Positions 4,122-57,242 of a stretch of DNA of 64,000 bases are shown here, piece after piece; the first letter of the stretch is position 1, and the number at the start of each line of letters is the position of its first letter. Under the pieces are notes generated by a model. The model saw nothing but the letters and a program-made list of their open reading frames with translations, made no database searches and had not been told where the DNA came from. The DNA lies in NCBI RefSeq assembly GCF_011745625.1, contig NW_027191471.1, positions 1 through 64,000 on the forward strand. The letters are read 5' to 3'. This DNA is from Cladosporium halotolerans (Eukaryota). Position numbers and translations under genes: made by a program.

Positions 4122-5857
4122 TCGCGATAGGATATGAGAGAGCTCCTTACCATACGCACGCTTCCAGGGTGGCCACAGACACGCCGGCTTCGGCAGGACC
4201 TTACCTGACACCACACAGGTTACCTGCACAGCCCATCACTGCCTCGGGTCTGCGGATCCTTCATTCACCAAGCATACGCTTGTGTGATCTAGTCAGCAAT
4301 GGCCCTACTTTTCTTTCACTGTCTTCTTTTCTTTTCTCCATGTCGTTGTTATTCAAACTCGCGCTCATTTTCCCAACACCCCAGGACAAGCGAATCGCAG
4401 GCGCAAGAAGGACGGCCGGAAGGGGCGCGTGAAGTACAATCCCCGATTGCCATGCGTTCCTCAAACCCGCGCATCGAATCGGCGAGCGAGGATGGGCGTT
4501 TTGTTTCTTCTTTTTTCCGTGCCAGCCTCGCCTGACTTGTGGGGAGGCTTCTGTCCGTGTCTGACTACTACAGAAACAAAAAAATGAAATAGGAAAAAAA
4601 CGAAATGATGTGAGGAAAAGAGTCGCGTGTCTCCTGTTGTTGAAGTGTCAATCCTATTATTACACTATATCACTCGCTTGCCCACTTCGGGCATGCATAC
4701 ACATCCCGCCCTACTGTGGTCTCTCTATACCGACCGACTGGACATGTTAATAAGGTCGTTGTACTACTGGCGGCCAGGAAAATGCCGAGGCGACAATCAA
4801 ATGAATAACGTGCTCGTCGTGTCCTACAAAGTCCCCTAGCCCTCGTTCCCGCTCCTAATAGCACCCGCCCGCTATGCCGATCGGCCACTCCAACAGTTCA
4901 CGCCGACATCAGATCCGGGTAGACGCCAACGTGTGTGCTTCCTAACGTCTACAGACCCGCAGCCGATCGTGGCGTTTCCTTACCAGCACTATTGGAAGAT
5001 GACGCCGCTCGCGCGACGGTTGGGCAATGTCTCAGAGTGCAAGATGAGATTTTGAGATTGCTTTTTGGGCACTTTCGACGCGTGCGCGATGGTTTTGGTC
5101 AGTTAGGCGGGTTGGACAACGTGGCCGCGCCTCCTTTTCTCTGCGTGAGGTGGTGCGGTTGTTGGAGTTATAATAAGAGATGCTCGTGCCCCCTGCGGCG
5201 TGGGAGGAGGCTTGCTCGGTCGTTGATTTTGTTCGTCCATACCCACACTCCTTGTCCAATACCGTACTGGCATTGTTCGAATCTGTTCCCTACAAACCTC
5301 ACTCTTTGTCCGGCACACCATTGCGGCAGCGCGCCTTGTTTCGAACGCACACTTTCTTTAAGCACGCCCTCTAGCCGAAAGCTCGAAACAATCTGAAGCC
5401 GCCGCGGCTCTCCTAGTGCTCGCGGTGACGGTCAAAGAGAACAGCTGGCAGACGCGGGACTGCGGGCGAACCAACCATCAGGGCCGACCTGCTGCTTCCA
5501 GTCGCGCGAACCCCACTCTGACGCTGCTGAGCGAACCCTCCGGCCCCGAATAGCTGGCTCCCTTACCTTAATACAGCTGTTTACTTGCCTGTGCCCGCCG
5601 CACACCTCGTCGACTTCTGCACTGCACCACCGCCGCAGCCGACCCTCCTTTCCTCCTCCGCCCCTGAACGCACCGTCTGGTCTCGTCTGTCTCCAAGTCG
5701 CCAGCGCCAGCGTCAGCAGCTACATCCAGTCCTCCTCCTCGGCTCGATCTCACCTCATCCCAGCTCTCGCCGAGCCCGGTTCCCCAGCGCTGCAGCGCTG
5801 CAGCAACTACCACCACCGCCACCACCAAACCCACCACCCGTCGACCAGCAGCCCACC

Positions 5858-7003
<1,146 letters not shown>

Positions 7004-7505
7004 ACTGGACGCGGTGTTCAGGAAGCGAAAGCGAATGTGCAGCTATGGGAGAAAGGCAAAACTAGGGAGTTGAATTGTGATGGAAAAGTACGTGGGAGGG
7101 GACAACTAGAGAAAATACCTTTTATGCATCTAGCTACGGAGTACTGTTCTTATTTTTGAAAAAATGCAAAAGGATATCTACTTCATCGTCAACTCTTATC
7201 GCAGAAGATCGCCGTAAAGGCGCGTGCCTCAGCTACCTAGATACGATCAACGCTGCGTCCGCAAAAACCAAGAGCCGCAGTCACGAATAGCAATTCCGCG
7301 CGGGGACACACGCCTGCTTCGATCCTCAGCAAAATCAACAGCCCGGTAACCTATCGCTTGTCAACTTTCGTCAATCCTGGCAGCTGGCTGCGCCACCTCG
7401 CTCACAAGCGCCAAACAGCCGCCTTCTATTCGGCCGACTGCACCCCGGCGGCGTCTTGCCAACACTGCTTGCACATCAACTGCCTACGACCCGTCCATAC
7501 CGGGC

Positions 7506-7563
7506 GGCGAAGCAAGTGTTCGCCTTTAGGCAGCTTGCAGCCTAAAGGCAAGTTTGCTTCGCC
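7506..7563. repeat. Near-perfect inverted repeat (two 10-bp stems)
   Basis: GGCGAAGCAA (7506-7515) pairs with TTGCTTCGCC (7554-7563); GCCTTTAGGC (7522-7531) pairs with GCCTAAAGGC (7540-7549); 8-nt loop. Confidence 0.9.
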
Positions 7564-7718
7564 ATGCGAGGCTGAGCATGCGGCACATACCACTCACCTG
7601 GTGCAGGTCTCATAATGGCATGAATCATCTCAGCTTTCACTTCAACGCCCCAAGATAACTTTCGCTAATACCGACGGCCGTCCATACTTTCTCAGACGAA
7701 GACCAGCTGTCGCACACA

Positions 7719-8267
7719 ATGGCACCGCTGAACATCATCCTCGCCAACTGGAGTTTCATACACGCTCCGAACGTCACGGCAGGGCTCCATCAATTCATCG
7801 CCGAAAGAAACTTGGTGGCGGGCTACATCTCGAGCCACGCGCACGAGATTCTGGAGTGGATTTCGCAGCCTCGTACGTCGTTATGAAGAATTCCGGCCAG
7901 GATCTTTAAGAAGATGGGGCCGAGGTAGCTGACGTGCTTTCAGACATCGTAATCCTCATCACCGTCTGGTGGATCACTTTCACGATCATCATAACACTCG
8001 TCCTGTGTCTCGGGTTTGGGCCGGGCGGTGTCGTCGCTGGTAAGTAGAAGACCTTCTCGTCCTTAGCTATATCAATCTGACAACCCTCGAGGCTCTCTCG
8101 CCGCAGCGTTCCAGGCTTGGGCGTACGGCGCGTTCACTCCGGCTGGAGGGATCTTTGCGACACTCACGAGCTTGGGAATGGTTGGGATGCTGGCTCCTGC
8201 TGTTGCAGTTCTTGGAGCGGGGTTCGCTACGATGGTGGTTTCTGTGGTTTGGTATGTGATGAGGTAG
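7719..8267 (+). CDS. Small Gly/Ala-rich membrane protein, ISG12/IFI27 (Ifi-6-16)-like, copy 1 (141 aa)
   Basis: Exons 7719-7872, 7944-8039, 8092-8267; the spliced product contains LGFGPGGVVAG^SLAAAFQAWAYGAFTPAGGIFATLTSLGM with hydrophobic segments on both sides. Not in the ORF track. Confidence 0.8.
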
Positions 8268-47808: not shown

Positions 47809-49914
47809 ATCTTGATCGGCTCAAGAAAGCAGCGCCCAATCATTGGCGGTTTAGGGTGGGATATGGGTGGATGTCGGTCGAAGGGGATAATGCCACAAGT
47901 CGAGGCTGTCCCGAGACTTCAGGTGAGACATCTCTTAAACATCTGCCTACTTGTACTTTCCAGATAAAATCTAGCATAATGATATGGGCGTAGATTCAGA
48001 ACAACATCTACATTGATTCACCAACTGTGATAGGTAGGAAGGAGCCGGACAATCGCCGCTCGTCGGTGTTTTCACCATCGTGCGCTGCTGCGGCTGCGCG
48101 GAAAGTCGGCTTGCACGACGCGGCAAGACGCAGATGAAGATCATCGAAGTTTGCGGTGAATGGTGACATTTTCAACACTGCCGACGACCAACGCGCGTCA
48201 TTGCAGATTGGAGCATGTGCGGACTTCCCTAATAATGCTGAGTATATTGTACGGCCTGGTGACGAGCGTGCCCAGGATTAAGTACGGGTACCACCTGCGC
48301 GAACAGATGGCACTGGCAATGACGTGTTCGCATGCGTTGGCGTACACGGCCGTGCAGCGAAAGTCATTTGCTCTCATTTACGGTGCAGTACATGTCGGGC
48401 CGTCGGTGTCACCAACTGTATGTAGCGTGTGCTGAGAGTCATCGCAGTACTCGCATCAGATGTGATACGCCGCTAGGTTTTGGTCCCTTTGCAGCGCTGA
48501 AGTCAAACGAAGGTTCAAACGCACTTTGCTACGACGGACATTGCGATGATCCAGACCCACCGTCGCGCTAGACAACCTTCTGCCATCTCCTTCCTGCCTA
48601 AAGCGCCGAATCTGAAGCCGAGGGCAGCCTGATAAGCCAAGCCTCTGCTATGGAGATCCGCTTGTGTCGACTGCAATGTACGCAAATTGACGCATGTCTC
48701 GCAAAGTCCCTGTGTTCAATGGAAGGACAGAGCTGAGATCAGAGCGCCAACACACCGAGGCACCGGCGCAGCGGACAGCAGACTCCGGGCGTGCAGGCCA
48801 CGTGGGTCCAGGATCAAACGGTCACCCCAGCAAGCAACGCGGGTGGTTAGGGCAGGATTTTACCGGGTGAACATGCTCGACACGATGCTTCCTGGTTGTA
48901 CCCAGCGTCTTGTAGCGATTGACAAATGCCGTGCCACGATTATGCCAGGGCCTGGCGCTCATGCAGCCCAGATGGCGCGATGTGACTGGGCGTCTTCTTC
49001 GTCAAGGCCGCCGGGTCACAGGCAAGGGCTAAGGCCTTGGGGATCCTCTGTGCTCGGCACCAGCGTCGCGGCTTCTAGGGTCCAAAATCCGACGTAGCGA
49101 GGTTGGACAATAATGGGCGATCCAGCAGGCGTGAGAAGCATTGAGCCACATTTTTTCCGCACTTGAACCAGCAGCATGTCGCTGAAGTGAAGTAGTGACC
49201 AGCGGCGCCGCACCCACGGCATCGTCCCGGAATAGGCATGTGGTGATGATGCGCGGGAACACTCGGGCCCCTACGCATGCGCGCCTGGGGCTCCCGGCGC
49301 GGCACCCTGCGCTTAGCGCCATCTCCTCCCCCCACTCCACTGGTACAAGAGTACGCGGAGGGCGGCCCTCTCACTCCCATCCGCCCCCTCGCTACGCGTA
49401 GAGGAGACCGCGCGCGGTATTGTTGGCGGTGCGAAGCCACATACACACACCGGCGGTGTGTACTAGCTTTGGCGCCTGCCAACTGTATTGCACTGAGACT
49501 GCCCGGTGTGAGGACCCTGATCCGCCCACTCGTCTTACTAAGGCCGACAAATCGCGCACCCTTTCCGACGACAACCAGACGGCGCAACTGAATCTCACGG
49601 CCACACTGTTGCGCAATCGACAGTACGAATAGACTCGGTGTTGAAGTCTCTACCTCGTCACAATCGTACACCGCTACAGCCTCGATCCCAGCCACTCCCG
49701 CAAGCCGTCGCACTTCCTCCTGTCTCAGCCAAGCGATCAGACGTCCGGCGCTCCAAGAAGAATTGCCGGCCAGACACATCTGCTGTGCGTCTCCAGGAAT
49801 CCGAACAGTGGCCAGGATGTGCGCTGAAGTGCACAACACTAGCAGAAGAGGCATACACACACAGTACAAAGAACCGCAGCGCGGACACCCGTCCTTCCAT
49901 TGACCCGACCGAAC

Positions 49915-50802
49915 ATGTCTATCTGGCGTGGCATACAGTCAGCAATCTTCTACTACGTGTCGTGCGCACCTTGTGCCGACGCATCGACTCGCAAGCAACG
50001 AAAGCGACAAGCCGTCCACGATGAACAGCTCCGGACAGAGCTCGAGGCCGCGCACCCGGATTACCCGTCGCAAGCGGCGCCTGGATCGGTAAATCCCAAT
50101 TGGCAGATCGAGATCGAATCCGGACCTCGATTGCCCAGGAAGCAATTGAGAGCTTTGGAAGGGGACATCAATCGGACAAGATCCAGGGACTTGAACAGAG
50201 TGGACAGCAGTGGCGGGCCGAAGGCATTGGGACGTAGGGACAGCAAGAGGGACCTGAAGCCGAGCGCTACGCAAAGCACCACCAGCAGTAAAGCACAGAG
50301 CTCAATGGACATATACAACACACAGCGCCACCTCATGGTCTACCAACGACCGGACGAAGAGCTCTGGGGCACCCCCTCGACATCTACTGTCAACCTGCCG
50401 ACACGGCCTGGCACAGCACGAACGAAAAGCTCAACCACCCCGCACCTATACCACCAAAAACAACATCCCGCCGTCAACGACCTTCATCCTCCAACAACAC
50501 GCAAAGTCACCTCGCGCGAAGAAGTCGCCTGGATGCTGCAGCCCTTACCAAGCGCAGCAGTGATGACAGGCAAAGAAGAACCGCACAGGGCGCGTAGCAG
50601 AACAAACAGCGACGTGAGCAGAAAATCGCCGAAGAGCAGCAAAAGCATCCCGGCGCCCCTCACACCCATCGAAGCCTACCATCCCTCAGAGGAGACCATC
50701 ATCCATACCCCCGACTCAGAAGAGGTCTTCGCCGAACCGGAACAGTGGATCTGGGAGACGACTAAGAGAGACGTCTCGGCGAGGAGGAGTTTGGAATGGT
50801 GA
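49915..50802 (+). CDS. Uncharacterised protein (295 aa)
   Basis: ATG 49915; motif-like blocks QSAIFYYVSCAPC, NPNWQIEIESGP, YQRPDEELWG, PAVNDLHPP, VAWMLQPLPSAAVMTGK separated by low-complexity linkers. Confidence 0.8.
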   Translation: MSIWRGIQSAIFYYVSCAPCADASTRKQRKRQAVHDEQLRTELEAAHPDYPSQAAPGSVNPNWQIEIESGPRLPRKQLRALEGDINRTRSRDLNRVDSSGGPKALGRRDSKRDLKPSATQSTTSSKAQSSMDIYNTQRHLMVYQRPDEELWGTPSTSTVNLPTRPGTARTKSSTTPHLYHQKQHPAVNDLHPPTTRKVTSREEVAWMLQPLPSAAVMTGKEEPHRARSRTNSDVSRKSPKSSKSIPAPLTPIEAYHPSEETIIHTPDSEEVFAEPEQWIWETTKRDVSARRSLEW

Positions 50803-51191
50803 TCGATCGCCTCTCGATTCGAAAGTTTCTTTCTTTGGTTCACACGACACGATATTTATCTCCTTTCATCATTTTTGGTTTAACAAGCGTTCAGAGCATG
50901 GAGTTCTGCCGGACATTGGATGGATATGGCGCGCGCATAGCCAGGCGCTGACGGCTTCTTGAGGACGCCTACAGGCGGTGCCTGTTTGTTTTAATTGTTG
51001 GGTTTTGATTTCTTGTTGGGTTCGAATATGTCGTACTGGAAATAGCAACCGCAGGGCTACAGTGGTTTCAGATTGAATGCAGTCCAAATTGGCTTCCGCC
51101 TGAATCTTTCCTTGACTTCAATTGAAACAATCTACAAAAGAAGAACCGCAGAAATGTGCTTCTTCCCCCCACCACCACCCCTTTTCATGGC

Positions 51192-52751
51192 TCAACGTCT
51201 GAATCTCTGCAAGACCGTCCTGATCCTAGATCTATTGGCCTGGTGGGTAGCTCGAACAAGATCGGTCGTAGCGACTTCGGTCGGTTCGTCGTGGCCACGG
51301 TCCCGGCTACAAGTTCCAGACGGGAAGCCAAACATCGACCTGGAGTCGTGAGCTAGAATTACGCGATGGAGTTTTGCATATTCGGCTGCACTCCATGTCT
51401 GTGACGCCAGATCCAGCGCAGTGAGGCCGGCGTTGTCTATGACTCCAATGTCTGCGCCAGAACCACACAGCAGCTCGACGCAAGCAATTGATGAGTCCAT
51501 TCCGGATCGCACAGCGTACATCAAGGCGGTACGACCATTCCCGTCAATAGCATTCGGAGATGCGCCCATACCCAGAAGTTCTTCGACGAGGGTCAGATCC
51601 GTCGTCTCAGCCGCTCGCATGAGAGCCGTCCGACCCCATTGTTTCCAATCTGGCGCGTCCACGGGCACGCTGTGACAGACGAGAAGCCGAATGCATGAGC
51701 TCCCATCCGCACTCGTGCCACGCCCGCACCAGCGGAAATCTGGCTCGACGACAGCGTGCAACGCAGCAATCAAGTCTGATGACACTGAGTGCTCCGAGCG
51801 GATCGCATGGTCTCCACCGCGTTCAAGCAGTAGACTCAACATTCTATGGTTCCGTTGCCAAGCTGCGAAGCATGCCAAAGGAAAATCCCCGAGAGCAAAG
51901 CCATTCCCAAGGAGATTTACGGCGCCAAGGCAACTCATAGACACCTTTTCTCCCAATGGCGCGACCGCTTGCTTGTCTAAGCAGCGGCGGACAATGTGTT
52001 CGTGGCCGCAAACCAGAGCCAAAGCGACTGGAGAGCTTGTTGCGACGATGGCGTTGGAATAAGCATACATGGGCTCCAGATTAACTTGTAACATGAACCC
52101 CGGTAGCACGAATCGCAACGCAGCAAACACATTCAGAGTGATCGGACATGTCAGTCGTCTTGCTCCAAGATCTGCGCCTGCTCTGTCCAGGGTGTCCAAT
52201 ATTGCCATGTCTCCTGTGACGCACGCAGCATGTGCTGCGGATCCAAGCAGCCCACAGCCTTGATTCACGTCGGCGTTGCTCCTAATCAGAAGCTGCACGA
52301 CGTCGACGTGACGCCCTAGTATGGCAAGACAGAGAGGGGTGCCGAAGAGGTTATCAGCCGCATGGATGTCAGCTCCCTGAGAGATCAAGAGTCGCACTGT
52401 GTCCGTCAATCCCCACCAGGCGGCATGATGGAGCGGAGTGAATTGGTTGACATCGCGATGGTGGACATTCGCACCTTGGGTGAGTAGGTAATGGAGACGT
52501 CGAATGCCTTGCCTGTGCGTACATGCTATCGTGAATTCTAGGTGGATCTGGTTTTCCGGAGGTTGCGTTGTTACGTGTGGAACATACTCGGAATGATAAT
52601 CTGTCAGGCCAAGTCAGCATATGACAGATTCTGTATGGGCCGATGAAGACAATGGTGCCCTAAATTGTTTCGTACTGTAAAAGTTACCGATGTGCTGGCG
52701 CGCAAGGCCGTCCGCTCGGATGTTCTCGAAGCGAAATCGACCTGAATCCAT
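51192..52751 (-). CDS. Ankyrin-repeat protein (494 aa) with an N-terminal HET-s-like amyloid signalling motif and no NOD domain
   Basis: Exon 1 52751-52676 (MDSGRFRFENIRADGLARQHIGNFY); intron 52675-52601 (GTACGA..GCTGAC..CAG); exon 2 52600-51192 with ~9-10 ankyrin repeats (TPLHHAA, GTPLCLA, GRTALMRAA, GRTALMYAV, GLTALDLA). Confidence 0.85.
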
Positions 52752-53100
52752 ACCAGTTGACGGACTTATAACATGCTAATTTCAGCAGCCTCTGAGTAAG
52801 CCGTGATGGTTGGTGCCTGTGCAAATAAGAGAATGGGTGAGCAGAGCAAACCATGGATGGATGGATGCGATGCAAAATCTGCCTCCAGACACAAGTACGT
52901 ACAGACAGTACAGTGAGCACGCAGATGCGCCACCAACCGGGGATTCCTCATCAGCGTCCAATGACAACAAGGAGACGTTTGTGAAATTTGGCATCTGTCA
53001 TCTGAGAGTTGGAATACGAATTGCTCAATCTCTTCATCATATACATACATGCCGTACCAGCACCAACAAATTCCAAAGCCGAATGACCGAATACCATCTC

Positions 53101-55488
53101 TCAAGTCCACAACCTGACCGTCCCATCAGCACCTGCGCTGACGCACCAAGCCTCTCTGGGATGCCAGTCAAGGTCCAGCACACCGAGCTCCTTGACGACC
53201 TTGTGGCCTCTCAGCACCTTCAGCGGCACCACGGTAGCGTTCTCCATGCTGTCTCCCACGACCTTGCCATGGAATACCTGCACAGAACCGTCGTCACTTG
53301 CGTCGGCGAAGAGCGGCAGTGAAGGATGGAACTTAGCGCTGCGGATAGCTTTGTCGTGGTAGCGGAGGACCTTGTACGGCGTCGTTCCGAGGTCCATGTC
53401 GTGCCACAGAAGTCTCCTGTCGTAAGAGGAGACGATGAGGTTGCTGCCGAGAGGGTGAAGGGAGATGGATGAGATCCAGCGGGCACCGGGCTGGAGCTCA
53501 CGCTCAAGCTTCTGCTGCTGCAGATCGTAGACACGAACACGCTGGCGGGTGGCGACAAAGAAAAGAGGCTTAGACGGGTGGAAAGTTGCAGTCTGAGCGA
53601 GACCTCGGAGGCGACGGAATGGGTGTTGCGAAAGGTGTTTGCTGAGGGTGTGAATGGCGACTGCGGTAGACGTCGCGCTGGTGTTAGGGCAGACGGTAGC
53701 GAAGTAATCGCCACGGCGGTGCCAGACGAAAGTCTTCGGCATCGAGCGAAGGGAAATTGTGAGATATACTCCCTGTGAGCCGTGTGCCGGAATCGGCCGG
53801 TGCCAGCTTGAAGGAGAAGGCTTGTCGGCGCCCGATGCAGTCTTGAGAGGCTGGTTCGCGTTGGGGTTGTTAAACCCGGCCGTGATAAGCTCAATGGCTT
53901 GAGTCTCGGCCTCGGGCGTTGTGACGGATGCTGAGGGGACGATGAAGTGCACGCTGTCGCTGCAGCAGGCAGCAAGAATGGGTGGGTCTGTAGTCGGCCG
54001 CCATGAAACAACATTCACAGCATCCGTTGTGGAAAGCTTCACTCGCTGGAAACAGTAGCCCGTCTTCAGTTCCCAAATGCGGACGGTACCATCGTCACCA
54101 CCAGATGCAAGATACTGACCAGAGGGGTCAATTGCAACAGTCCGGACTCTTCCGTCGTGGCCCTTGAAAACAGTAGCCACATGATCGGGGAACGGACGCA
54201 GCTCTGCAGGGTCGGGCAACTTTGGAAGCAAGCTCTCCGGGTCAATGTTGAGCTTGCTTCTCCGTACTCTAGGCGCGAGATATAGGTCCAGGCATCTTTC
54301 GAACTTCTCTTTGACAAACCTGGCGTACCCAGGAACTCTACGCAGGGCGGAATGGTCTTGGGGCAGATAGTCACGCGTGCGATCCTCCTCGTCTGCCTGC
54401 TCCCATGCTTCCCTCTCCGCCTTGTCAGGCAAGTACTCTGCGGGCGGGTGGTAACTCTCTTCGTATCCTGGCGGTGGGAGCTTAGGCGCAGGGACGTTCA
54501 TGATGTGATCAGGACGAGGAGCCTCATCAGCCCAGACATCATATGTCGCAAAGTCCTCTTGTTCATCCTTCTCCTTATCTTCCTCGGTAGGCTCACGGTA
54601 AGGCTGGATGCGACCCTCCTTGATCGCCTTGACCATCTTCATGACACGCTTGTGCTCGTGCATAGAGGGAACGAAACGTCTCTTCGGCTCCGGCGCAGCA
54701 GACAGCGGCATGATCTCCTGGTTGTGCTTGCCAGTAAACCACTCGACCATGTCCGGGTAGGGGTCATAGCCCTCTCCAGGTCGCTCGTTGCGCGTCAATT
54801 GTTTGAGGACCTCAAGCTCTTCGCGACTGAGGTTGAGAGGCTTGCCAGTCGCAGGATCGGTAAGGCCGGTCCAGCCTTCAGGTAGGTCAATGCTATCCAA
54901 GAGTGAATCGAGTGCTTCTCCCTTTGCGGGGCGAGCAATGCGCTTTCCATTGATGTCGTAACCGATGTGCGGGTATGCATCGTAGTATGAAAGCGGGATG
55001 TTGCCAATGGTGTTCACGCCGTCTGGGGCGTCAGAATCGTCAGAGTCGTAGTTGGGCTCGATCTCTTTGTACACGTAGCGCTCATTGCCGTTCGCGTCGG
55101 TCTCGATGGTATAGTTGGGCTTGTCCGCATCATCTGCTAGAGGCTTGACTGGTGTGCCGGAGGAGATAGATGCAATGTCCTTGGCCGTGTCGGTTCCTGT
55201 GAGCTTCTTGGTGTCTCTCGTCTTAAGGTCGCGAATCTGCTGTCGCACGTCCTCTTCCTCCTCATCTTCAGAAGATGGTATCTCGTCACTGTCTAGTTCT
55301 TCATCCTCGTCCTCATCCTCCTCAAACTCCTCTTCGCTTCCGTCTTCACTCGCGCCGTCCTCCGAGCTGCTTCCATCGTCGATTGCGCCGTCGAGCAATC
55401 CGTTTCCCAGGGCGTCGTCCTCCTCTTGCTGCTTTGGTCTAGGCACCTCCACGACCTTGCGCTTCTGTCCAGCACGTTGTGGTGCCAT
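53101..55488 (-). CDS. ERB1: Ribosome biogenesis protein Erb1/Bop1 (BOP1NT + WD40)
   Basis: [60 protein letters not shown]40 repeats ending [14 protein letters not shown]. Confidence 0.98.
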
Positions 55489-55846
55489 TTTTGGTTGTGA
55501 TACTCAAGAGTGGCCTGAGGAATATTTCAGGTCTTCACGGCCAAACGTCTTCTAGAAAAAAGCTTCAAACTTCGAGTTCCCTCGGCCTAGCGCCAAGATG
55601 CGCGAAGATCCCTGCGCGCAAGCGAACGGAAAGCGGCGCGGGCCTAGCCTTATCGCCGCTTTAGTGAGGCCTGGGGCTGAGGCTGACGGAGTCAACAGCA
55701 AAGTGGGGATGAAGGTAGCAGGCAGAAAGAGCATGCGGTATATTTCCTAATGAGCATCTTATAGCGACGCCTCAGGAGATCTGTCGAATATCAGTCAATT
55801 TCTTTCATGACAGAAGCGAAACTCTTGTATTCTTGCATGCGTTAGG

Positions 55847-57242
55847 ATGATTTTGGCCTCGCAAGAACAAACGCAAAGTGCTTTGGACGACATGCAGGTC
55901 AAGAGACGAGCTGCTTGCGATGAATGCAGTATGCCTCGCAGTCTTGATATATCAAACTTCAGCTATGTCTAACATTGTGTTATCGGTAGGATCTAAGAAA
56001 CTGAAGTGCTCAGGAGAGCAGCCATCTTGCGCCAGATGCGTGCGAGAAAACATCAAATGCACATATTCACCTCAAAGCCGAATGGGTCGTCCAAAGAAAC
56101 GTCAAAGGGCTGATGATAATATCGATAATAATTCTGGAGAGTCTGGGCTGCCTTTCACTCAGCTCGTCGACCCTGAGCTAACCAACTTGCAACCGGGTGA
56201 GCTACAGGCCTTCGAGAACAACGCCTTCACCAGCGGAAACGGGGGACCCCGTCCAGCTTCAACGGTTCCTGACGTGAACTCTGTCGTGGAACATGCTTTG
56301 CAGCCTTGGATGCTTCCAGGCGGCTTCGACTTTGATCTGGATGCCTTGAACAACCACGGCGTGGATAATGCCATCCTACCAGACCTGACGCCTGATGGCA
56401 GTTCTCATGATAGCCCGCCGGTCTTGTCATTACCTCCAGAGCTGCAAAACATTCCTCAAACGATCCAAATTTCTATTGTCACTCCTTCCAATGACACAGC
56501 TATCAGGGCAAACTCCTCTGACGATCAATCACCATTGGCGACCTGTGCCTGCCTTTCCACCCTCTATCTGACCCTTTCCAACCTCACTACAATGGATCCG
56601 GCCTTCCCTTTTCCCACCTCTCTCCATCCGCTTCGCGAAGCGATGTCGACAGCGTCTCAGGTGATGACTTGCCCAAGCTGCCCGAAACGATTCATCACCG
56701 GTCTGCAGAACGTCTCACTGTTAAACGCCCTGCTGATGTCGCTCGCGGACCGCTTTTCACGAATTCTGACCTCGATCTCAAACGAAGCCACCACTCTGGA
56801 AGCTCACAACGCCAGCGTGCCAGCGACCGAACAAAAAACAAAGACCTTCCGGCTCGCGGACCTCTCCACACCAGGCCACCTTCACACCGGCGGCATCGGT
56901 TGCGCAGCGGCCTTCAACCTATCCCTTTCGCCAGCTGAGTGGCGCAGCATGGTCAAGAAGGTCGTCCGCGCTGAAGTTCACGGGCCAGCAGATGGCAACG
57001 AGTGCTGTCCGTGCTTGCTCGGCCTGATTGCGCAGATGGAAAAGCGGCAGGACCGCTGGCATCAAGCTCCGCCTGCGCAGGACTTTCCTCGGGGCGGTGA
57101 TGGTGAGTTCTTGTCGAGGGATTTCCGGCTGGCTGGTGGATGTGGAAATGGAAGCGAGGAGGCGCGTGAGGAGGAGGAGCACGTTTGTTTGAAAATGTTG
57201 GCTGGGACGAGGAGGATGGTGGAGAGTTTCGATTGGACTTGA
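55847..57242 (+). CDS. Zn(II)2Cys6 transcription factor with an AflR-like C-terminal region
   Basis: Exons 55847-55928, 55990-57242; RRAACDEC^RSKKLKCSGEQPSCARCVRENIKCTYS..MGRPKK; C-terminal CACL...CPSCP. The start could instead be ATG 55892. Confidence 0.92.

Follow-up and report, generated by a model that had tools for sequence, protein, structure and literature searches.

The window analysed here is a 64,000-nt stretch of the Cladosporium halotolerans genome (contig NW_027191471.1, positions 1 to 64,000), and it carries on its minus strand a gene whose product joins a short HET-s-like segment to an array of ankyrin repeats. The coding locus (51192..52751) consists of two exons and specifies a product of 494 aa, as computed from the spliced sequence. 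The coding part of exon 1 (52676..52751, 76 nt) starts with an ATG at 52751, which has a purine at −3 and a G at +4, and comprises 25 codons plus 1 nt (phase 1; MDSGRFRFENIRADGLARQHIGNFY). It is followed by a 75-nt GT..AG intron (52601..52675), with the donor GTACGA at 52675, an acceptor CAG ending at 52601 and two CTGAC branch-like sites, and by the coding part of exon 2 (51192..52600, including the stop codon at 51192-51194), which is in frame with exon 1. An initial annotation, made from the letters and an open reading frame (ORF) track, had arrived at the same model: the track does begin the gene at 52409, where a bacterial-style ORF starts at TTG, and the frame is open up to the CAG acceptor at 52601, the stop-to-stop frame reaching 52613.

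Transcription of the gene was assessed in public sequencing runs, 24 of which are listed for positions 51000-53000 and four of which (X15, X16, X17 and X20) were examined. X15 and X16 belong to a single study of one organism, and both are presumed to be RNA runs. Each yielded one contig (1580 and 1558 nt, respectively) from a relative ~98% identical to the window, covering 51178 (X15) or 51185 (X16) to 52600 and then 52676 to 52830 (X15) or 52812 (X16). Both contigs omit exactly 75 nt, bounded by CT..AC on the plus strand and thus by GT..AG on the gene strand. Because a contig lacking the intron is what is expected of cDNA, they confirm exon 1 and the 52600/52676 joint in this relative; the 76-nt exon and its in-frame 52675-52601 junction, both proposed from the sequence, were thereby recovered exactly. 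The alternative donor GTAACT at 52687, named in the initial annotation as a competitor, is used in neither contig, both of which employ the donor at 52675. Independent support for the junction comes from a Tyr/Asn/Thr/His-rich tail that is common to the family described below and that spans the splice site. X20 spans parts of exon 2 only and does not reach the junction.

The contigs also include ~79 nt of 5′ untranslated region, which reaches at least to 52830 in X15 (52752..52830) and to 52812 in X16. Within it lies a two-codon upstream ORF (ATG TTA TAA, 52766-52774, minus strand).

The public protein P0246 (142 aa; an NCBI/UniRef member of the 98% cluster of relatives described below, and of the same 90% cluster) matches the final 142 residues of the product without a difference (51192-51620, minus strand). 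The public gene model hence appears to take an internal Met as its start and to lack the motif together with most repeats, and screens based on proteomes could not have seen the N-terminus.

The exon 2 product matched only ankyrin families in Pfam (Ank_2 and Ank, E 1.2e-32; matches considered to E 10). Pfam, AlphaFold2 and Foldseek agree on an array of ~11 ankyrin-like helix pairs (51333..52550, residues 17-422 of the exon 2 product), of which the middle ones are degenerate. The AlphaFold2 model, computed from a 20-row alignment, has a mean predicted local distance difference test (pLDDT) score of 77.1 and displays a continuous ankyrin array with a weaker mid-section; the best PDB matches found by Foldseek were DARPin fusions and the repeats of ankyrin-B/R. 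The array thus has the tandem 33-residue helix-turn-helix organization of ankyrin repeats, and it provides the C-terminal superstructure-forming repeats (ANK, WD or TPR) that are one hallmark of NOD-like receptors (NLRs). At the DNA level, the ankyrin repeats lack high internal conservation and no tandem repeat array was seen. Downstream of the array, a disordered linker (pLDDT <50 for residues 421-445) leads to a predicted C-terminal helix (51198..51278; AlphaFold2 helix 441-467).

The second hallmark of an NLR, a central NACHT/NB-ARC or P-loop domain, is absent by both Pfam (E up to 10) and AlphaFold2. The 75-nt intron and the flanking intergenic stretches of ~350 nt (towards the neighbour ERB1) and ~390 nt (downstream) leave no room for a degraded NACHT. 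With the nucleotide-binding oligomerisation domain (NOD) tested for and absent, the protein does not count as an NLR, and the initial annotation was right that motif and ankyrin repeats are joined directly, without NACHT/NB-ARC. The motif is separated from the first repeat by ~20 residues. Collectively, these data demonstrate an expressed two-exon gene encoding a probably disordered segment of ~30 residues, ~11 ankyrin-like repeats and a C-terminal helix, and no NOD.

The N-terminal segment was compared with the published definition of the HET-s-related amyloid motif (HRAM). HRAMs are 21-residue units with an invariant glycine at position 19 and hydrophobic residues at positions 5, 8, 10, 16 and 18; R or K is preferred at 15, N, Q or H at 3, and large polar residues at 3 and 20 (PMC4518210). 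Variation includes T at 10, Q at 16 as the stated hallmark of HRAM5, and Q at 18 in HRAM4; the Q16 motifs in print read A-R-Q-F/W-I-G-N, and the r0 motifs of NLRs pair I or L at position 8 with G at 12 (PMC4518210). On NLRs the HRAM starts mostly at residues 5-9 (PMC9815663).

In the present protein, a putative r0-like motif occupies residues 4-24 (52680..52742, minus strand; GRFRFENIRADGLARQHIGNF), a placement indicated by a weak PF11558 match in the same register, by the top rank in the window and by conservation in the family. G22 falls on motif position 19 and R18 on position 15, supplying the invariant glycine and the preferred positive charge. F5, I8, A10, I18 and N20 also fit, and I8 together with G12 reproduces the pairing of NLR r0 motifs. 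With Q at 16, the residues at 5/8/10/16/18 (F, I, A, Q, I) form an HRAM5-type hydrophobic pattern, and the core of the peptide reads A-R-Q-H-I-G-N. Other amyloid motif classes (RHIM, PP, sigma and PUASM) were considered as well: judged by the spacings given in PMC9815663 rather than by profiles, the G/Q spacing of the PP (NxGxQxGxN) and PUASM (FxGxGxQxxGxGxF) classes does not fit the peptide.

Eight of 21 residues are identical to HET-s repeat r1, whose sequence as given in the initial annotation agrees with supplementary file 2 of PMC4518210 in that frame; eight of 21 are likewise identical to r0 of NWD2. Ungapped BLOSUM62 comparison against the 75,385 stop-free six-frame 21-mers of the window placed the peptide first for NWD2 r0 (score 36, next best 28), a likeness that adds three identities missing from r1 (A10, G12 and H17). 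It also ranked first for HET-s r1 (score 34, next best 30), a rank that is partly circular, since the peptide had been picked for its r1 likeness, and that to this extent counts against the HET-s reading. The rank was 84 for HET-s r2 and 74 and 245 for two typed HRAM5 examples, so that the peptide lies nearer to the receptor-side NWD2 r0 than to HET-s r2. Among 246,526 21-mers from 250 collected proteins it again came first. In Pfam, the only non-ankyrin match of the 53-residue frame was PF11558 (HET-s_218-289; E 0.19), with G22 on G242, and the 25-residue peptide alone had no Pfam match.

The motif is not confined to this gene. Searches with the ankyrin part gave 794 matches (E <=0.001); among the 120 listed, one cluster was 98% identical (P0003 and its members), P0004 was 78% identical and the others were below 50%, those with wide coverage reaching at most 35%. 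A scan of the collected proteins for r0-like 21-mers located the motif at the N-terminus of the ankyrin-only proteins P0047, P0070 and P0010. The unspliced 45-residue translation had three matches in a representative library, including the ortholog P0243, a read-through ORF that keeps 21 of the 25 exon 1 residues and whose intron-encoded part shifts the frame; P0243 presumably lies on the same 8480-nt contig as P0004. The other two library matches, a repeat protein and a bacterial beta-propeller protein, were dismissed as spurious. When a model built from five N-termini (A1) was run on 361 collected proteins, it added P0281 (E 2.4e-10), P0204 (E 1.7e-8), P0255 (E 2.6e-6) and P0037 (E 0.097), the last being an NCBI hypothetical protein of Cladosporium fusiforme. 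The family profile (A2) then retrieved five metagenome loci (L001-L005), in all of which the motif either opens the ankyrin ORF or lies in a small ORF immediately before it; L003 (E 5e-7) and L005 (E 3e-5) scored best, and in L001, L002 and L004 (E 0.2-0.9) the match was always at the expected place. Several members are single ORFs from motif to repeats, such as the 779-aa ORF of L002.

Altogether, the motif precedes ankyrin repeats in 14 N-termini, namely those of this gene, P0243, P0010, P0047, P0070, P0281, P0204, P0255, P0037 and L001-L005. All are ankyrin-only in Pfam, and none has a NACHT/NB-ARC domain (E up to 10). In P0322 only the tail of the motif is visible, and P0003, P0004, P0006-9, P0247-P0252, P0254, P0259, P0300, P0302 and P0325, which start inside the repeats or have a GTG-type start call, could not be judged. 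Three further searches were uninformative: a metagenome scan with the exon 2 product alone gave 53 pattern matches of which none was confirmed, an ESM Atlas search with residues 1-40 of P0047 gave no usable match, and a search for longer, NLR-sized relatives found only generic ankyrin similarity.

Conservation of the motif in homologs, which the initial annotation had asked about, is clear from these 14 N-termini, in an alignment of which residues were counted by eye. Position 19 is G in all 14; position 15 is R or K in 13, position 17 is H in 12, position 22 is Y in 11 and position 23 is N in 10. Position 16 holds Q in 11, V in two and M in one; position 20 holds N in six, H in five and D in three; and position 18, the most variable of these, holds N in seven, I, L or V in five and A in two. 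Next to the motif comes the Tyr/Asn/Thr/His-rich tail. Against NWD2 r0, the best-scoring 21-mer of every one of the 14 puts a G on position 19, with scores from 39 (P0281, 9 of 21 identical) down to 12 (L003). Sequences much like canonical r0 motifs stand in L002 (A-R-V-H-A-G-H) and L004 (A-K-V-H-A-G-H). For 12 of 14 members r0 outscores both r1 and r2, a count biased by the choice of register on r0. The motif begins 2-7 residues after the first Met in most members and at residue 4 in this gene, matching the position of HRAMs on NLRs (PMC9815663).

The N-terminal segment is probably disordered. In an AlphaFold2 model of P0281 the ankyrin array is confident, whereas residues 1-56 are unstructured (pLDDT ~30). 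The same model shows no confident contact between the N-terminal peptide and the ankyrin groove, which speaks against autoinhibitory docking, albeit weakly, as few alignment rows span the N-terminus.

A longer subfamily carries a second conserved element past the motif tail, a basic patch followed by S-D-D/E-x-L (for example RKRKSDDTL or TRSDETL). It is found at residues 48-60 of P0070, 54-65 of P0204 and 31-43 of P0322, and in the ankyrin ORFs of L002 and L004.

L001 proved to be a syntenic ortholog. The gene order Zn2Cys6, ERB1, motif-ankyrin gene is common to the window (53101-57242) and L001 (5207-9245), the anchor being ERB1/BOP1 (53101..55503, minus strand; Pfam BOP1NT and WD40), and in L001, too, a phase-1 intron follows the motif tail. 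ERB1 is 89% identical between the two (712/796), the ankyrin protein 30% (133/446), and exon 1 keeps 7 of 25 residues. Against the X15 strain, the exon 2 piece has 31 differences, 26 of which are listed; 16 of these are synonymous and 10 nonsynonymous, all 10 in codons 238-461, for an uncorrected ratio of nonsynonymous to synonymous polymorphism (pN/pS) of ~0.21 from those 26 of 31 differences. The low pN/pS, taken with 30% identity as against 89% for ERB1, indicates purifying selection on short time scales and very rapid divergence over long ones. By analogy, such divergence may resemble that of recognition genes.

A comparison of P0004 with window positions 52032-52079 (minus strand) revealed a short stretch that matches another frame and looks like a compensated double frameshift. 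The ORF of P0004 ends ~90 residues early.

Among known elements, r0 of the NWD2-type NLRs comes closest in sequence to the N-terminal segment, whose Q16 is HRAM5-like. NWD2, the NLR partner of HET-S in Podospora anserina, shares with the present protein a single N-terminal 21-residue motif, a short linker and a repeat recognition domain, and the identities to its r0 comprise I8, A10, G12, A14, R15, H17, G19 and N20 (supplementary file 2 of PMC4518210). The two differ in that our protein lacks the NACHT and has ankyrin in place of WD repeats, has Q rather than V at position 16 and F rather than N at position 3, and has no adjacent HeLo partner that we could find; the likeness is one of sequence. 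HRAM5 motifs share the Q16 hallmark and the A-R-Q-x-I-G-N reading; F3 stands where the Q-type supergroup is expected to have Q, and the published members reside on HeLo-type effectors and NLRs (PMC4518210). Fungal NACHT-ANK NLRs have, like this protein, a fast-diverging C-terminal ankyrin array and a short N-terminal motif of the signalling type without an enzyme domain, but their defining NOD is missing here and in all 14 family members. The HET-s/HET-S prion-forming domain (PF11558) matches in register, as noted for G22, and in the 8 of 21 identities to r1, yet it has two repeats where there is one here, is C-terminal rather than N-terminal and accompanies a HeLo domain that is absent here.

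Kinship of the segment with the single-copy, receptor-side r0 motif is thus supported, albeit below threshold, and we tentatively favour, with somewhat less than even confidence, the reading of the protein as an ankyrin sensor or adaptor that has no NOD and bears an amyloid tag of the receptor type. The broader proposition is more doubtful, namely that the family as a whole is a conserved, fast-evolving set of ankyrin sensors with a receptor-type HET-s-like rung and no NOD, serving for entry into, or tuning of, amyloid-templated immune or cell-death signalling without NLR oligomerisation; its members would either nucleate the fold on a multivalent ligand or join, or cap, fibrils that an NLR had started. 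Amyloid formation and signalling by the segment are what we infer from this likeness. In such a mechanism the ankyrin array would be the recognition part, and the N-terminal rung would be unfolded in the soluble protein and turn into cross-beta structure when many copies are brought together. Such clustering could take place on a multivalent ligand or, alternatively, on a fibril that an NLR with a compatible motif had already nucleated. It would link the ankyrin protein with an amyloid-templated pathway, the remaining components of which would be encoded at other sites in the genome. Strongly expressed NWD2(1-30)-GFP nucleates [Het-s] without the NACHT, whereas the full-length receptor needs its ligand (PMC4344463); by analogy with NWD2, the ankyrin array could gate or concentrate the rung.

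Several observations weigh against the amyloid-tag reading. At position 3 the peptide has F instead of the expected N, Q or H. In its loose form, the HRAM residue pattern has one match in the window as against 2.6 expected in shuffled sequence, and since it is not rare by chance, the pattern alone proves nothing. The peptide has four Arg, one Asp and one Glu, more charge than the r0 motifs of PMC4518210, so that stacking of identical copies would be disfavoured, and no known oligomerising module is present in the protein. Firm conservation in the family is limited to the second half of the motif (R-x-H-x-G-N/H/D-x-Y-N). The family is also more variable than this gene at the hydrophobic positions: Asn at 18 in seven of 14 members (Ala in another two) and H/A/S at 5/8/10 in L001 fit a hydrophobic solenoid core poorly. 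Scoring by profile, which the initial annotation had proposed, did not bear out the assignment: no curated model reached its cutoff, the best being PF11558 at 12.2 bits, far below the 32.2 required. P0047 matched PF17108 (HET-S) at E 0.4 (11.1 bits against a cutoff of 24.3), and the other 12 of the 14 N-termini had no HET-s-type Pfam match at E up to 10. This shortfall must be read alongside the reach of the model, PF11558 matching only 38 of 155 published HRAM proteins (PMC4518210). HET-s chains were absent from PDB sequence searches with the 53-residue frame and with the five-N-terminus profile (E up to 10); the single PDB match, a hydrogenase subunit at E 1, was spurious. Finally, X17 gave an unspliced 724-nt contig (52337-52998) from a relative ~4% divergent, with 23 differences and five one-base indels; it lacks one T of a TTTT run at 52679, at the exon 1 end, which would put the exons out of frame with the same donor and acceptor, and its remaining four indels lie in the non-coding upstream part.

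A cognate partner, that is, two repeats on a HeLo-type effector, was not found next to the gene either in the 64-kb window or at three of the metagenome loci, which also speaks against the amyloid tag. The family motif model detected no second copy of the motif among 1733 six-frame ORFs of the window or among 1454 ORFs of the metagenome loci. Pfam revealed no HeLo, HeLo-like, SesA, PNP_UDP or patatin ORF in the window (53 of 98 ORFs of at least 150 aa), nor any such partner in L001, L002 and L004 up to 10 kb on each side (118 of 152 ORFs of at least 110 aa). As 98 of 155 published HeLo-HRAM genes have an adjacent NLR (PMC4518210), absence from the neighbourhood is weak evidence. Given position 3 and the curated profiles, membership in the HRAM class is not established. 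Of the overall interpretation in the initial annotation, the gene model, the junction, the NOD-less fusion and the conservation stood, and the kinship to HRAM profiles turned out weaker, all scores being below threshold.

L002 contains, at 5030-8260 (plus strand), an ORF of 1077 aa with NACHT/NPHP3_N and no recognised repeats, which shares the strand of the motif-ankyrin ORF and precedes it by 1.7 kb. L004, which is syntenic to L002 on the downstream side, has cutinase and terpene-synthase ORFs in place of the NACHT ORF.

The main competing account takes the segment for a disordered short linear motif that is conserved for a non-amyloid function, such as docking, regulation or turnover, or localisation of an ankyrin scaffold, its HRAM likeness being convergent because both are short G/N/H/Q-rich segments. 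That firm conservation is restricted to the motif's second half plus the Y/N/T/H-rich tail would be understandable on this account, as would the residues at 18 and, in L001, at 5/8/10 that suit no solenoid core, the blank or sub-threshold Pfam and PDB results, the want of a partner gene nearby and the additional basic-acidic patch conserved in one subfamily. It accounts less well for the identical best r0 register in 14 of 14 members, several of them scoring above every 21-mer of the window, for the two members that read A-R/K-V-H-A-G-H like canonical r0, and for the start of the motif at residues 2-7 in most members, as in NLR HRAMs. The lack of docking on the ankyrin groove in the AlphaFold2 model argues in the same direction, weakly, as few alignment rows span the N-terminus.

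Another account, which we regard as improbable, retains the HRAM kinship and reverses its effect: as a decoy or cap, the single rung would dock on HRAM fibrils nucleated by an NLR, block or divert their extension and dampen cell-death signalling. The charged peptide would favour heterotypic over homotypic stacking, if the charge complementarity described in PMC4518210 applies, and many members have Asn or Ala at position 18, which could make self-nucleation weaker. On the other side, no cognate NLR or effector has been identified, and a simple cap needs no large, fast-evolving ankyrin array. Capping and recruitment are indistinguishable, and equally compatible, as far as the sequence goes.

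Chance resemblance to HET-s, with exon 1 an unremarkable N-terminal extension, is very improbable and already largely refuted by family conservation. One might cite for it how common the loose pattern is, the 12.2 bits reached in Pfam where 32.2 are required, and the picking of the best-looking peptide of the window. Yet the 78% relative keeps the motif (21 of 25 residues), and so do 12 others with 26-35% identity in the ankyrin part, its place and register being unchanged.

Least credible of all is a decaying remnant of an NLR that recently lost its NACHT, a deletion that the initial annotation had named as an outcome to look for in orthologs; the other known r0-type motifs belong to NLRs, for which ankyrin repeats are a usual C-terminal part, and one might point to the out-of-frame stretch and early end of P0004, the 1-nt deletion in X17 and the NACHT ORF 1.7 kb upstream in L002, but the absence of NACHT/NB-ARC from all 14 members, including the syntenic ortholog, rejects a recent deletion, the NACHT neighbour is missing from the syntenic L004, the search for longer relatives lists none above 45% identity and wide-coverage matches of at most ~32%, and the gene is spliced, expressed and has a pN/pS of ~0.21. 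An ancient NLR origin is compatible with the amyloid-tag reading that we favour.

Fungal amyloid signalling is described, in the literature consulted, as running from the N-terminus of an NLR to the C-terminus of an effector, and surveys start from NOD- or HeLo-type proteins; a NOD-less motif-ankyrin protein would therefore be invisible to them. No account of a NOD-less protein in which repeats are joined to an HRAM-type motif emerged from literature searches or from parts of PMC4518210, PMC9815663, PMC12261475, PMC12258605, PMC3321046, PMC4344463, PMC4262963, PMC7889193 and PMC4986451, and one may still have been published. The core strings of the motif do not occur in the 11 supplementary files of PMC9815663 that were searched, 'ARQH' appearing only in an unrelated alignment; the motif instance sets (files 9 and 10) were outside this search and may list the motif. 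If the motif templates, the family raises the question of how nucleation is controlled without an oligomerising ATPase, and offers a small natural system, a rung plus a binding domain, for ligand-driven nucleation or inhibition of amyloid. If it does not, the family is a warning that an HRAM-like pattern can owe its conservation to something else, a point of consequence for motif detectors applied to whole proteomes. The function proposed here draws on sub-threshold sequence evidence together with family conservation, and is of real interest to the amyloid-signalling field.

Beyond the 3′ side of the gene, positions 51000-51065 are represented in X15 and X16 by a separate contig that abuts it and has four- to fivefold its depth. 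This deeper contig probably belongs to the convergent neighbour, an ORF on the plus strand (49843-50802) with no Pfam match.

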